In this document: positions 43,724 to 51,872 of the stretch, piece after piece | How positions within the stretch are numbered: position 1 is the first letter of the stretch | Layout: each line of letters starts with the position of its first letter | IMG/VR virus record: IMGVR_UViG_3300027815_000003 | Span: 126,285 to 190,284 of that record | Direction: 5' to 3' (one strand) | DNA: 64,000 nt | DNA from: a virus | Translations under genes and position numbers: made by a program | The notes under the pieces: model-generated | Told to the model about the DNA's origin: nothing | The model's input: the letters and a program-made list of their open reading frames with translations, nothing else | Databases searched by the model: none

Positions 43724-43964
43724 TGTTTCCCTCACTTGTTTTGATTATCAGAAAGTCTTAGAACTACTAAATGTGCGTTTATTTATGTAGTGCGGTAGAC
43801 TTTATGCGACTCGTTCCTCTTGTCACTTTCTGACATTCTTAGTTTACCATAGTTAGGCCCTGTATGCAATACGTAATTCTACTTAGTTTTAATTTAGCTA
43901 CTTTAGTTCTATTGTTCTGATTTTTTAAGGCCGCTCAAAAGAGCGGCCTTGCTTGACATAATGA

Positions 43965-44126
43965 TTATTGGCAGGCTTTGCGAAACTTGGCTTCGCTAAA
44001 AGAGGGATTGTCGGCAGCAAAAACCTGACAAAGGTCATTAAGAAGCATCCCTAAATGTATCTTCCCTGTCGGGTCTGTATTGGTTTTGAGGATTTTAGCT
44101 ATTGCGATATAGTCATTCTTTGTCAT
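43965..44126 (-). CDS. small phage protein MTKNDYIAIAKIL...DNPSFSEAKFRKAC (not in track)
   Basis: GGGAGG RBS; the DNPxF..xKF motif is of a recurrent small phage family; stop lies in the 3' element. Confidence 0.75.
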   Translation of the reverse strand: MTKNDYIAIAKILKTNTDPTGKIHLGMLLNDLCQVFAADNPSFSEAKFRKACQ

Positions 44127-44286
44127 GTGACCCTCCCGTTTGATTTGATACAGTAATCATAACATATCCATTACATTAAGTCCATACGTAAAAATACTTA
44201 GTTTCTTTTTAGAACAATAGCACTACTTTAGTAATTTTACATAATAAATAATCGGGCCAGTGTTTTATTTCTGGCCCGATACCTAA

Positions 44287-44799
44287 TTACTTTGGCTTAT
44301 TCTTTGATCCTGGGGGCCTACCCCTTCCCCTTCCTGTGGGTGCGTATGCCTTTACCGTGCTAGGGTTGCTGCTCTTGCTACCCTTTGGCCTTCCCCTCTT
44401 GCCCTTTGATGTGTTACCAGAGGATACAGACCGCTTGACCTTTACGTCTTCGTGATGTGGCATATCTAGGTTCCCTTCCTCTAAGGGTTCAACGTCTAGG
44501 TTCTGTTCAGCACGAATGGCGGGTGCAGTGTACTTGGAAAAAATAGGGGAAGGGATAAACGCATCTCTGATCCCGCATTCCTCCAGTAGGTTCTTTTCCT
44601 TAAGCCAGAGGAATAAATCCATGATTTTGTTTTGGGCTTCGGGATTCCCCGACAAGTCCCATGTACGGAAGAATGGATTGGATACCCTCGGATATCCAGT
44701 GTCTTCATTCTGTTGGGTAAAATACCCGCTTAGTTTGCAATAGGTTGCTTCAGCCATTTGTTTTACCGCCTCACTTGATTTGATAACTAGAGTATACAC
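44287..44799 (-). CDS. AT-hook-containing protein
   Basis: KRGRPKGS and GRGRGRPPGS at the C-terminus. Confidence 0.7.
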   Translation of the reverse strand: MYTLVIKSSEAVKQMAEATYCKLSGYFTQQNEDTGYPRVSNPFFRTWDLSGNPEAQNKIMDLFLWLKEKNLLEECGIRDAFIPSPIFSKYTAPAIRAEQNLDVEPLEEGNLDMPHHEDVKVKRSVSSGNTSKGKRGRPKGSKSSNPSTVKAYAPTGRGRGRPPGSKNKPK

Positions 44800-45003
44800 C
44801 TATTAATTGCTAAACACAATACGTAATTATACTTATTTTGTTTTAGAACAATAGGACTAAAATAAATAAGTAACTAAATTAGTTCTATTGTTCTAATTTC
44901 TGGTTATTTTGAAGGCGTTCCATTCGGAACGCCACATTTTGTTTCCCTCCGAATGTATTGATAATATTATAGCATATAAAAAGAAACAATGCAATACGTA
45001 ATT

Positions 45004-45306
45004 CTACGTAGTTATTACCCTTTCAAATACATTTTCAAAATAGTTAAGCCTATTCATGTTTCCACTTTCAGACCAAATGATCCATGCTCTGTCTGTCTTT
45101 CCATCCTCAAAGGTGACAAGAACACGTATCTTCCTATCTTCCCCAACTTGCGCCCAGAAATCTTTTCTACCTGTAACCTTTATTGTAACAGGAGCAATTC
45201 GCTTAGAGACCATAGAGAAAAGATATGGCAAAGAATCTTTGATAGCTAGATATCGTTCTGTCCCGTTATCCTGTATGATATATGCGCCATGAAAAATGAT
45301 GTCCAT
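45004..45306 (-). CDS. hypothetical protein
   Basis: Track ORF with likely start MDIIF; stop lies inside the palindrome. Confidence 0.65.
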   Translation of the reverse strand: MDIIFHGAYIIQDNGTERYLAIKDSLPYLFSMVSKRIAPVTIKVTGRKDFWAQVGEDRKIRVLVTFEDGKTDRAWIIWSESGNMNRLNYFENVFERVITT

Positions 45307-45609
45307 ATTATTTCCCCTTTTGTTTGATGTATAGAGTATACCATAGCTTTGGCATAGACGCAATACGTAAAACTACGTATTTTTTAGTTTAGCCCTATTG
45401 TTCTAATTTAGTTAAACACTAATTACGATATTCGTTAGAACAATAGATATAGTGTATTACAAATATCGTAGCACTATCCTAACTGAAACTGCTAAAAAAT
45501 TGATATAATGCGGGAAAAAATGGTATACCTTAACAGAAATACATGAATTATTTTGCAGGTATTTACTAATATCGTTTTTAGAACAATAGTGCGGAAAAAA
45601 CAGAACAAA

Positions 45610-45964
45610 AAATAACCTACCCCGAACGGTTTAGCATTCCGTTTTCTTTTGCTACGGGGTAGGTGGAGAGTAATATACAGTAAAGGATCGTTTATTCTTC
45701 CTTCTCTTTTTCCTTTACCATATCTGAATATACATTACTAGGCTACCGTTTACCAATGAAAGGGGATACTTTCATTTTACACCTTCTTTCAACCGTCCTT
45801 TTATGAAAGGAGAAATGTGCATTAGTAATAGTGTCTAGGCGTTGTCATGTATTTGTGAGACACTAGGCGTCCCATTCTCACTTTTATTCTGCCTTCAACA
45901 CATTGGCTTGTCAAGGTGGCTCTATAGTTTAGTCTGGCCTGTTTCTTTTTCTGTCCCTTGACAA
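45610..45964 (-). ncRNA. candidate structured ncRNA D
   Basis: Promoter TTGCGC-17-TATACT. Starts with a TTGTCAAGG...CCTTGACAA stem, has no ORF of real length, and ends in a 10-bp stem at 45614-45664. Confidence 0.5.
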
Positions 45965-46014
45965 TTAGTAGTATAGCACATTCGGTTGTGTGGCGCAATA
46001 AGTAGGATTACTTA

Positions 46015-46238
46015 TTACATCCAGGGGATCCAGGTAGGGCAATCCTTAATAATTGGTGTTTCCTTTCTTATGTGTTATTGATTATTGGCTTTCACGTCTA
46101 GCCAGTTCTGTAGGGCTTCACGAGTTTCTAGCTACCCTATCAGTTGTCAAGTGAGTCTCTGGGCGCTCACTGTCAGACTTTCGCTATTTCTAGCTACTGG
46201 CTTACGGTACTGGCCATCTTGTTTACTGCTCTTGACAC
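46015..46238 (-). ncRNA. candidate structured ncRNA C
   Basis: Promoter TGGACA-17-TATACT. Starts AAGTGTCAAGAG...CACTTGACAACTG; no credible ORF. Confidence 0.5.
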
Positions 46239-46404
46239 TTAGTAGTATAGTCCTTTACAGTCTTAATGTCCATACGTAAAATTACGTATCTTTACTTATC
46301 TTTAGTTAGAACAATAGTGCTATTTTTAGTTTTATGACTATTGTTCTAATCCAAAGATAAAAAAAGAAGGTGGGCCGAATGGCCCACCTAGCTTGACATA
46401 ATGT

Positions 46405-50201: not shown

Positions 50202-50319
50202 TTTATTCCTCTTTCTTTTTTTGACTTGTTATTAGTTTAGCATACTTGTTTACTTTTGTCTATACGTAGAATTACGTATTTTTATTTAGAACAATAGAGC
50301 TAATAAAAAAAGACGGATT

Positions 50320-50631
50320 TTATCCCGTCAAATATTCCTTTTTCATTTCTTTACGTACATATTCAGAATATGGTTCTTCATTGTATGTATTTGTCAAAAC
50401 ATATTCTATAATATCCTTTGCATCCTTCAGTCCCAGGCCAGGGAAATTTTCCCGAAGGGCCTTTATTGCCCTAATTTTATTGTGCCTCTTATTTCCACAG
50501 GTATAACAGCAATAGCCCGCATCGTTAATTACAGATTCAATTATATCTGCGGTAATAACTTTGGTCGTCGCTGGAATAGTAACATAGAAACTTGGTGTTT
50601 TGTTGATAATTTGGATGTTTGGATTATTCAT
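50320..50631 (-). CDS. protein with ribosomal bL12 (L7/L12) C-terminal-like domain
   Basis: NKIRAIKALRENFPGLGLKDAKDIIE. Confidence 0.7.
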   Translation of the reverse strand: MNNPNIQIINKTPSFYVTIPATTKVITADIIESVINDAGYCCYTCGNKRHNKIRAIKALRENFPGLGLKDAKDIIEYVLTNTYNEEPYSEYVRKEMKKEYLTG

Positions 50632-50707
50632 TGTTTTCTCCCATTTTATTTGATGTGCTAATTATATCATTAATCTGTTCTGGTTACAATACGTAAAATT
50701 ACGTACT

Positions 50708-50971
50708 TTAGTTATCTTTTATCTCACGCCTTCCGTACCTTCCCGAAGGACTGGTATGACCTTCGGTATTAAGTAGATTTAAATTATTCTGAATTGAACC
50801 ATGACATAACTGCAGGAACTGTTCAATATCCGCTATAGATATTGGCAATGCCTGCATATCATTAGCGGCATGAAGCCAACGGTAAAAACCATCAATATCC
50901 CCATTCCTAGACGCATTAGCATACATATCTAGGATATATGAACGGGTATATTTAATGGGTTTCTGTGACAT
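50708..50971 (-). CDS. hypothetical protein
   Basis: Track ORF in a cassette. Confidence 0.7.
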   Translation of the reverse strand: MSQKPIKYTRSYILDMYANASRNGDIDGFYRWLHAANDMQALPISIADIEQFLQLCHGSIQNNLNLLNTEGHTSPSGRYGRREIKDN

Positions 50972-51046
50972 TGTAAAGTACCTCTTTTATTTACTACCTA
51001 GAGTATACTCTTATTTAACCCAATAATCAATACGTAATTTTACGTA

Positions 51047-51490
51047 TTGATTATTTTTGTGCTTTCACAGCCTAGAAAGGTACTCGCACAATATAACAAA
51101 CAACTTATCTAGGATAGCTGTCCTATGACTAGAATTATACAGCAAGTATCTTTGGTGGTCTAGCACCCTAACTTTCTAGCTGTTAGCGCATTTACGTAGT
51201 TACTGCTACGTCGCAGCTTGCAAGGATATTTAAGCACTCTTTCACAGATTAGAGCTACAGCCAGATTTGTGAGTCGTTGGAACATAAGCCCTTGACTATC
51301 TGGTATTAACTACCGCCTCAAATTCGCTTCTGTCTCTGGGGTATAGTCCTCTCGCTTATTGATATTGGGATAGATTTTCGTTTGGCGATTTACGGTTCCC
51401 CTGTTGATGTTATCGCTAGTTGCCCCGTTATGTCAAGGATGGATAAGCTATTCCATTTAAGGCTAGGGCGAGCTAGTCACTCCTGACACT
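51047..51490 (-). ncRNA. candidate long structured ncRNA A (about 440 nt)
   Basis: Fills a whole cassette behind TAGACA-17-TAAGAT with no ORF of 60 aa or more. Its 5' end is homologous to ncRNA B. Confidence 0.6.
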
Positions 51491-51536
51491 TATTATCTTA
51501 TCATATTTAGTTGTCATTGTCTATACGTAATTCTAC

Positions 51537-51572
51537 TTACTTCTTGACGGTACGGGTGGCTTTTCGTCCCAT
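51537..51572 (-). CDS. basic micropeptide MGRKATRTVKK
   Basis: AAGGAG RBS; stop TAA is the TAAGTA half-site. Confidence 0.5.
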   Translation of the reverse strand: MGRKATRTVKK

Positions 51573-51579
51573 AGTCTCC

Positions 51580-51872
51580 TTTATTATTTATCGGTATTCA
51601 CAAGAGCTTTTTACCCTCTGGAATAATAAATCGTTCTCTTTGCCTTGAAGCGTTGACCGCTGGACTAGGTATGTAGCCCCCCAATGGGAAGCGGTTCGCT
51701 TTCCAACTGTATACCGTCTACCCAACAGAGATAACCGATTGGGTAACAACCCCCTTATTATCCTGGCGGGGTAACTGGTCGGCTATGCTCCCCAGATTCG
51801 GGCATAAAGCCCGCTTACCAGTTGTCAAGGCGGCATTAAGCTATTGCCTTTAATCCTAGTCACTCTTGACAC
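51580..51872 (-). ncRNA. candidate structured ncRNA/leader B (about 290 nt)
   Basis: TTGACA-17-TATACT promoter. Starts AAGTGTCAAGAGTGACTAG...CCTTGACA; GC-rich hairpins. Confidence 0.55.

Follow-up and report, generated by a model that had tools for sequence, protein, structure and literature searches.

A repeated 5' hairpin at the predicted starts of four candidate untranslated RNA units in the cassette region of an uncultured phage

A repeated hairpin opens four predicted transcription units

The window analysed here is the last 64 kilobases (kb; 64,000 nucleotides, nt) of the 190,284-base-pair (bp) virus record IMGVR_UViG_3300027815_000003, which comes from an uncultured phage and has a G+C content of 30%. 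In this window, four minus-strand transcription units predicted from their promoters (A-D) open with the same hairpin: each starts 1-4 nt past its promoter with (U)GUCA(A/G)G, and the partner CUUGACA follows 49-93 nt later. This repeated 5' element is real. Its best reading, which we hold tentatively, is that A-D would be early, untranslated RNAs or leaders whose 5' end is held in a protective clamp. A sequence-only reading of this DNA had described five minus-strand elements (A-E) with a 5' stem near the predicted start, and all five were found where it had placed them. Coordinates below refer to the window and, unless marked otherwise, to its minus strand.

The arms of the stem are TGTCAGG (51488-51482) and CCTTGACA (51438-51431) in A, TGTCAAG (51871-51865) and CTTGACA (51829-51823) in B, TGTCAAG (46237-46231) and CTTGACA (46151-46145) in C, TTGTCAAGG (45964-45956) and CCTTGACAA (45916-45908) in D, and TGTCAGAAAGT (43835-43825) and ACTTTCTGATA (43756-43746) in E. 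In all five, the 5' arm begins 5-6 nt after the -10 hexamer, which is TATACT in B, C and D, TAAGAT in A and TAAACT in E; if transcription starts lie as predicted from these hexamers, the hairpin begins about 0-4 unpaired nt from the predicted 5' end. The clamps of A and B are 7 bp long, with one G.U pair in A; those of C and D have 9 bp, interrupted by one bulge in C, and that of E has 11 bp. The pattern TGTCARG-N20-50-CTTGACA was found at three loci (A, B and D) versus 0.00 expected in shuffles, and C is a fourth locus with the same arms at N79, beyond the range of the pattern. Fold prediction gave the clamp a probability of 0.7-0.99 in transcripts of nascent length, and the fold of the whole unit improved only modestly on shuffles, with a z of -0.5 (A), -2.6 (B), -1.2 (C), -2.5 (D) and -2.2 (E).

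The units lie among about 55 minus-strand cassettes, which run from 42.8 kb of the window to its end and over the first 30 kb of the record. A cassette starts with a TA(C/A)GTA-N4-TACGTA palindrome fused to a sigma-70-type promoter, and in coding cassettes the promoter is followed by a common ATCAAATCAA..GGAGG leader, shared by 16 of them, and then by a small, mostly orphan open reading frame (ORF). Between 38.6 and 53 kb, in an island of higher G+C content (34-45% vs 24-31% across the first 39 kb of the window), the cassettes close with a 3' module made up of the stop codon, WCATTA, TGTCAAG, Y and a terminator hairpin.

A and B carry one paralogous 5' module

The promoter of B (51878-51906; TTGACA-17-TATACT with a TG extension) is the strongest consensus promoter in the stretch, with 11 of 12 matches, and lacks the TACGTA palindrome. 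The 5' module of B (51823-51874) consists of the 7-bp clamp UGUCAAG/CUUGACA around AGUGACUAG, UUAAA and an inner hairpin (GGCA/UGCC, loop AAUAGCUUAA), and its clamp has a predicted probability of 0.94-0.96 at every transcript length. A, whose promoter (51495-51539) combines a TAAGTA-N4-TACGTA palindrome with TAGACA-17-TAAGAT, carries a paralogue of this module at 51431-51490: the clamp is UGUCAGG/CCUUGACA with one G.U pair, a CUAG..CUAG mini-hairpin is added, and the inner hairpin AUGGA/UCCAU has a loop, AAUAGCUUA, identical to that of B.

The homologous module spans about 55 nt and is shared by A and B only. The string that had earlier been seen in both aligns locally with a score of 38, against 19.1 +/- 2.2 for shuffles. 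Beneath the invariant loop AAUAGCUUA, two base pairs of the inner helix have changed on both sides in a compensatory way (U-A to G-C and G-C to C-G), and one pair of the outer helix has gone from A-U to G.U; moreover, the G.U pairs in A and E become C.A mismatches on the opposite strand. The compensatory changes and G.U pairs between A and B argue for selection at the RNA level on the minus strand and, together with the predicted probability in nascent transcripts, suggest that the stem forms in the RNA. A covariance model built from the two modules scored 94 bits for A, 81 bits for B and 15 bits for C, the last through the ends of C only. It also hit one further, doubtful site downstream of the polymerase gene, and found no other match in the rest of the genome and related metagenome contigs.

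Alignment of the bodies of A and B was no different from that of shuffles. The body of B (51573-51822; G+C 48%, z = -2.6) holds no ORF preceded by a ribosome-binding site, and B acts as an approximately 300-nt leader of an 11-codon ORF, the basic micro-ORF MGRKATRTVKK behind AAGGAG (51537-51572). A homologous basic micro-ORF, MGKRTRTIRK, with a ribosome-binding site, was found at 43260-43228, where it overlaps the stop codon of the upstream gene. The body of A (51047-51430) has no similarity to that of B and is not more structured than shuffles (z = -0.5); it holds a 41-codon ATG ORF with a weak ribosome-binding site (51285-51160) and a promoter-like site (51162-51134), and continues into the next cassette promoter. 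The promoter of B (TTGACAAACCAACAAAAGT..) is duplicated before a 0.9-kb non-coding unit (L054:11312-12291, minus strand), which holds a stand-alone TnpB omega scaffold and opens with a short basic 19-codon ORF.

This layout also fits cis-acting leaders, in which the modules or units would act on the polymerase or ribosome entering the downstream cassettes, either by antitermination of the HK022 put type or as ligand- or protein-sensing leaders. A, B and C lack a terminator of their own and enter the next cassette, the first strong terminator beyond B and A lying at 50329-50312, past two genes; the strongest promoter is that of B, which closes with a Shine-Dalgarno sequence and an 11-codon ORF; A-D occur as the tandem pairs B-A and C-D, which head hairpin-separated cassette runs; and the single-stranded blocks kept between A and B (AGUGACUAG, UUAAA and the loop AAUAGCUUA) look like contact surfaces. 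However, D ends in a strong terminator of its own and no gene follows, the downstream cassettes each have a separate promoter, and no Rfam riboswitch or leader family matched at E<=10. We take the resemblance of the hairpin modules of A-D to put RNA to be one of position only. Both are structured elements of about 60-90 nt in nascent RNA near an early promoter, ahead of terminator-separated genes, but D terminates normally, and the likeness is drawn from position rather than from a comparison of sequence or structure. A, B and C may be leaders rather than discrete RNAs; as an account of the whole set, a cis-acting function seems unlikely, though not far-fetched.

C and D share the hairpin, and E is a different construct

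The promoter of C (46244-46298) carries a palindrome and TGGACA-17-TATACT. Its 5' module (46145-46240) is a clamp, AGU-GUCAAG/CUUGAC-A-ACU, around 79 nt that are unrelated to A and B and hold a GCUA-GAAA-UAGC hairpin. What C has in common with B is AAGUGUCAAGAG and CUUGACAACUG, about 12 nt at either end of the module; the interior is unrelated. The body of C (46015-46144; z = -1.2) has no terminator and ends at the palindrome of the D promoter.

D (promoter 45967-46014; TAAGTA-N4-TACTTA palindrome, TTGCGC-17-TATACT) shares the stem arms alone with the other units. Its 5' module (45908-45965) is a 9-bp clamp, UUGUCAAGG/CCUUGACAA, around 39 A-rich nt, with a predicted probability of 0.87-0.99. 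The body (45605-45907; z = -2.5) ends at a strong intrinsic terminator, CCUACCCCG...CGGGGUAGG followed by a U run (45663-45605), and on this prediction D is clearly the sole discrete RNA among the units, of about 355 nt.

E (43746-43835) is an 11-bp hairpin, UGUCAGAAAGU/ACUUUCUGAUA, with a z of -3.3, and sits between the transcription start and the ordinary AAUCAAAACAAGUGAGGG leader of a 64-amino-acid gene. With the hairpin removed, E is an ordinary cassette leader. Its stem, UCAGAA/UUCUGA, is closer to the leader hairpin of the cassette at 47972 than to A-D. E is therefore a different construct and does not carry the same box as A-D.

The stem heptamer is specific to the island

TGTCAAG/CTTGACA occurs in 27 copies between 38.6 and 53 kb versus 1.4 expected, an approximately 19-fold enrichment found in the island only; the rest of the genome has 19 copies versus 15.2 expected. 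At least nine of the island copies belong to the 3' modules of coding cassettes, seven are hairpin arms, and several are true -35 boxes of palindrome-less promoters. The 3' module is about 45 nt long and begins exactly at the stop codon of unrelated genes, and its terminator hairpin has compensatory variants. One example, with stop codon, WCATTA, TGTCAAG, Y and terminator hairpin, lies at 43945-43970; in other 3' modules TGTCAAG starts at 49166, 47054, 46398, 43218, 42231, 41117 and 40726, and on the plus strand at 39790. Because TGTCAAG is specific to the island and present in the 3' modules of coding cassettes, the stem sequence shared by A-D may reflect copied modules or a sequence-specific factor.

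The same enrichment can be read at the DNA level, where the inverted TGTCAAG/CTTGACA would be -35-like hexamers, half-sites, recombination joints or the ends of tiny elements, and the RNA hairpin would be incidental. CTTGACA includes the consensus -35 hexamer, and TGTCAAG marks the junction of coding payload and terminator. Short palindromes lie in the same island at about 39335 (GTCAAGTATTGAC) and about 39025 (GTCAATACTTGAC), E reads as an insertion into an otherwise normal leader, and modular shuffling at conserved promoter and terminator motifs is documented for T4-like phages (PMC4122927). However, of the 11 3'-module copies only 2, and of the 4 hairpin 3' arms likewise 2, have an acceptable -10 hexamer at 16-18 bp, near background. 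Among the arms only those of A (TAACAT) and D (CAGAAT) have one, and B, C and 9 of the 11 3'-module copies have none (background 12%). CTTGACA arms acting as sigma-70 promoters were rejected, since a usable -10 is present in a minority and near the background rate. Furthermore, the arm-to-arm spans of 49, 57, 58 and 93 bp do not keep helical phase and so speak against a protein that bridges two DNA half-sites, whereas an RNA stem is indifferent to spacing. The inverted ends are just 7-9 bp with no target duplication seen, and the G.U pairs and the compensatory inner helix indicate RNA. We consider a purely DNA-level role rather improbable.

An insertion resembling a miniature inverted-repeat transposable element was rejected: over the five elements the inverted ends are only 7-11 bp, no direct repeat flanks them, the interiors are unrelated except for A and B, and every copy stands at a transcription start.

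Coding potential and RNA family status

That the elements contain no real ORF proved correct for A-D as far as long ORFs are concerned, and too broad otherwise, since B has its 11-codon ORF, A its 41-codon ORF, and E leads a 64-amino-acid gene. A-D lack the ATCAAATCAA..GGAGG leader of the coding cassettes. Six-frame peptides of the units showed no protein-level similarity to the genome or to any of the fetched loci, and decayed genes were rejected on this result. As far as can be told, A-D are non-coding.

No relevant Rfam match was found with even the laxest filters, in agreement with the earlier statement that the elements could not be assigned to a known Rfam class. At gathering score, Rfam 15 returned nothing but one transfer RNA (tRNA) over the whole window; at E<=5 nothing relevant appeared in 43.0-52.5 kb, and at E<=10, searched per pair of units, nothing relevant among GOLLD, ROOL, HEARO, group I introns, riboswitches and ribozymes. 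The further proposal of an undescribed non-coding RNA family is upheld in part: the units are unmatched in Rfam and A and B show compensatory changes, but what unites the family is the 5' hairpin box only, the bodies are unrelated and E is different. A structured-RNA family is so far claimed from one paralogous pair and a 7-9-bp box in common, which does not yet amount to a discovery, and A-D are orphan RNA candidates rather than a demonstrated new RNA family.

Several known kinds of RNA were tried and rejected for A-D. Antisense or trans-acting RNAs were dismissed because the units showed no more extended complementarity than shuffles did, whether to the genome of the phage, to the mRNA leaders that the cassettes share or to the 3' modules; retrons, because the genome has no reverse transcriptase; and tandem-repeat antitoxin RNAs, because the units have no repeats. 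TnpB is encoded at window 8586-9719, and a stand-alone omega scaffold lies at about 11.9-12.1 kb of the genome; A-D are, like omega RNA and HEARO, promoter-driven non-coding units in a TnpB-carrying phage. However, blastn found no similarity between them and the TnpB 3' scaffold (window 9560-9800) or its stand-alone copy, and the units had no HEARO match in Rfam at E<=10, so that both were rejected.

Homologues and relatives of the cassette system

No homologue of the units was found in GenBank phages with megablast and blastn. Motif scanning of IMG/VR gave one match, inside an unrelated coding region; the scan for the 3' module gave chance matches only, and the search for the promoter palindrome gave single matches only. 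The A/B motif was not found in the metagenome and genome collections. Three other assemblies carry all units at 100% identity; the phage is present at this identity in the samples JGI 3300000574, ENA ERZ27253376, run ERR2108713. As these three contigs are identical and the collections searched hold no homologue, cross-genome covariation is not available.

The palindrome search in metagenomes led to short contigs from Hainich groundwater with the same cassette layout and no homologue of the candidate RNAs. One of them (L138, ERZ1292629, 1032 bp) has four TACGTA-type palindrome promoters and a tRNA, and encodes a homologue, of approximately 70% nucleotide identity, of the cassette gene at 47966-48274. 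Relatives of the cassette system thus exist in groundwater, where they were found as fragments only. Two flanking cassette proteins have no relatives in IMG/VR, and one of the two, of 163 amino acids, has none among 5.8 billion proteins. Relatives of a 102-amino-acid cassette protein are numerous, but the phages that encode them are unrelated and smaller and lack both the palindromes and the box, and relatives of the capsid protein (approximately 70% identity) belong to phages of about 80 kb without the palindrome.

The units might also be non-functional filler, namely shuffled or decayed cassette remnants in which the hairpin box is left over from duplicated module ends. The unit bodies show no similarity to one another or to anything else, A is not more structured than shuffles, the neighbouring cassette proteins are themselves orphans, and the region is a hyperplastic cassette array. 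On the other side, each unit is preceded by an intact, strong promoter, the 5' module of A and B persists, compensatory changes included, despite complete divergence of the bodies, D retains a perfect terminator, and the phage is otherwise tightly packed with genes. Filler is, in our estimation, quite improbable.

Comparison with Y RNAs

The phage encodes a Ro60 (TROVE) protein of 540 amino acids (genome 31308-32930, minus strand; 54.5 bits), and the clamp could be imagined as its binding stem, as in Y RNA, the two ends of which pair. GUC..AAG/CUUGAC is loosely like the helix of vertebrate Y RNA, GGUCCGA/UUGAC. The bacterial and phage Y-RNA 5' motif, GNCGAAN0-1G (PMC4201824), is absent from A-D, which have GUCAGGAG (A), GUCAAGAG (B and C) and GUCAAGGG (D) instead. 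Moreover, the units contain no tRNA-like T/D domain and no YrlA (RF02553) match at E<=10, and they lie at genome 171.9-178.2 kb, more than 40 kb from the TROVE gene rather than within 4 kb of it on the same strand, as a Y RNA would be. Immediately upstream of the TROVE gene, and on its strand, lies a proper YrlA-like RNA, an arrangement also known from other phages and bacteria; this RNA has CAUCGAAAAG in place of UGUCAAG. A-D thus resemble YrlA in having a closing stem near the 5' end in a Ro60-encoding phage, and differ from it in motif, tRNA-like domain and position. On motif, model and position, we rejected Y RNA for A-D and consider it highly improbable.

In the locus that holds the TROVE gene and the YrlA-like RNA (C1:31308-33230; L187:2450-2800, minus strand), the RNA has T and D arms (GGAGUUCGAGUCUCC and UAGCUCAAUUGGAAGAGC), is closed by an 8-bp stem, UAAUUAGU/ACUAAUUA, carries CAUCGAAAAG as its motif, and is followed by a long tRNA-like gene. 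It scored 25 bits with the Rfam YrlA model, below the gathering score.

A protective 5' clamp as the best reading

As we propose it, A-D would be untranslated early transcription units of the phage, with D a discrete RNA, B a leader, and A and C running on. Once transcribed, (U)GUCA(A/G)G would pair with the CUUGACA 49-93 nt downstream, burying the 5' end and making the ribosome-free RNA a poor substrate for RppH and then for RNase E or RNase J; the clamp would also supply a fixed folding nucleus for bodies that may have roles of their own. The presence of the same stem in A-D would stem from the copying of modules within the 14-kb island, as indicated by the paralogy of B and A, the two flanks shared by B and C, and the heptamer in the 3' modules of coding cassettes. 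A sequence-specific factor reading UGUCAAG is possible.

5'-terminal stem-loops are known to stabilise bacterial RNAs (PMC3997798, a review that draws on Emory 1992 and on Bouvet and Belasco 1992, as well as on the aprE leader), and RppH of B. subtilis needs at least two, preferably at least three, unpaired 5' nucleotides (PMC3997798). RNAs free of ribosomes are those most in need of 5' protection. A stabilising clamp would account for where the stem lies and for its pairing. As in the 5' hairpins of ompA and papA and in the aprE leader (PMC3997798), the hairpin lies a few nt from the 5' end of the predicted primary transcript, and the RNAs here, too, would be without ribosome protection. Different from these known stabilisers, which are defined by structure only, one stem sequence recurs across the four units, and the stem word also occurs single-stranded in the 3' modules of neighbouring genes. 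Furthermore, the loops enclosed here are large (35-79 nt), and the hairpins are putative stabilisers.

Several observations weigh against this reading. It starts from predicted transcripts, and A, B and C continue into the next cassette. When A and C are folded at full length, other pairings displace the clamp, which then has a probability of 0.0, the fold z is weak for both, and strand asymmetry is small. With no homologue in any searched collection, covariation is confined to the single A/B pair, and for these two sequences the compensatory count is not significant, 121 of 500 shuffles reaching the observed value. A naive search for stems of at least 7 bp that join the first 12 nt to the 140 nt after them succeeded in about half of the 55 cassettes; since 5' stems are frequent by chance in A+T-rich DNA, the signal lies in the recurrence of one sequence rather than in finding a stem at all. 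A stabiliser function alone leaves this fixed heptamer, and its occurrence in the 3' modules, unexplained, because a simple stabiliser needs structure and not sequence.

Genomic setting

The cassette layout has been described for the PeSL cassettes of T4-like phages (PMC2839356, PMC4122927). With a DnaE-type polymerase, and with the uncultured phages of about 80 kb as relatives by capsid, this phage is not T4-like. Small orphan payloads flanked by standard regulatory modules in a hyperplastic early region are common to both systems, and the TACGTA-N4-TACGTA palindrome and promoter of this phage are laid out like a PeSL. However, the PeSL stem-loop is upstream of the promoter and serves as terminator and recombination point (PMC2839356, PMC4122927), whereas the UGUCAAG clamp is downstream of the start site, within the predicted transcript. 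The phage is unusually rich in RNA genes, with Ro60 and its YrlA-like RNA, a stand-alone omega RNA, a solitary clustered regularly interspaced short palindromic repeat (CRISPR) and tRNAs, a context in favour of reading A-D as RNA.

The solitary CRISPR repeat (48708-48744), which ends with GAGGAUUGAAAC, has its own promoter cassette between C/D and A/B and is a candidate RNA anti-CRISPR. It matches CRISPR-DR9 (34 bits, E = 8e-5), and its 3' half matches arrays of Thermomicrobiales and Chloroflexi; these genomes are of high G+C content and the phage of 30%, so the match leaves the host unsettled.

Two other promoter-proximal hairpins were noted: a 10-bp stem, UUCAGAAUCA/UGAUUCUGAA (47840-47935), in the leader of a zinc-ribbon-like gene of 117 amino acids, and, in a 175-bp cassette at 45010, a 9-bp stem, AUUCGGA..UCCGAAU (44935-44985), over both the start codon and the ribosome-binding site of an ORF of 16 codons. 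The gene-poor left end of the island contains the palindromes GTCAATACTTGAC (39020-39035) and GTCAAGTATTGAC (39325-39345), many AGAACAATAG / GAAC-N4-GTTC boxes and, at 40200-40560, a non-coding stretch of about 400 nt with many TAG-containing repeats. In a Joint Genome Institute contig (sample 3300000574; L199:1-3900), the start of the record is joined directly to window position 53012 via a repeated cassette, the join being located at a cassette palindrome. The record ends are either an assembly repeat of a circular or permuted genome, or the contig is a variant without the 11-kb segment 53013-64000.

Implications

At least four promoter-driven cassettes of the early orphan-gene island would yield RNA that lacks coding capacity. 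They neighbour a solitary CRISPR repeat, and the genome also has Ro60 and its Y RNA, a stand-alone guide scaffold of TnpB and odd tRNA-like genes. Phage non-coding RNAs are poorly catalogued, and some are known as anti-defence decoys. A more specific reading, to which we give a distinctly low probability, is that the A/B module (clamp, AGUGACUAG, UUAAA and invariant loop AAUAGCUUA) and, in a looser sense, the UGUCAAG box common to A-D and to the 3' ends of the cassette mRNAs form the recognition element of a phage or host RNA-binding factor yet to be named. If so, the units would be a new class of early phage RNAs, for example RNA decoys against host defence, like the CRISPR-repeat cassette between them, or a new cis-acting antitermination element.

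The present value of A-D is that of a flagged candidate. If the shared 5' box is only a stabilising hairpin, it would be an ordinary, neat example of a known principle; if it is a recognition site for a protein or polymerase, it would be a new regulatory module for the whole cassette system.

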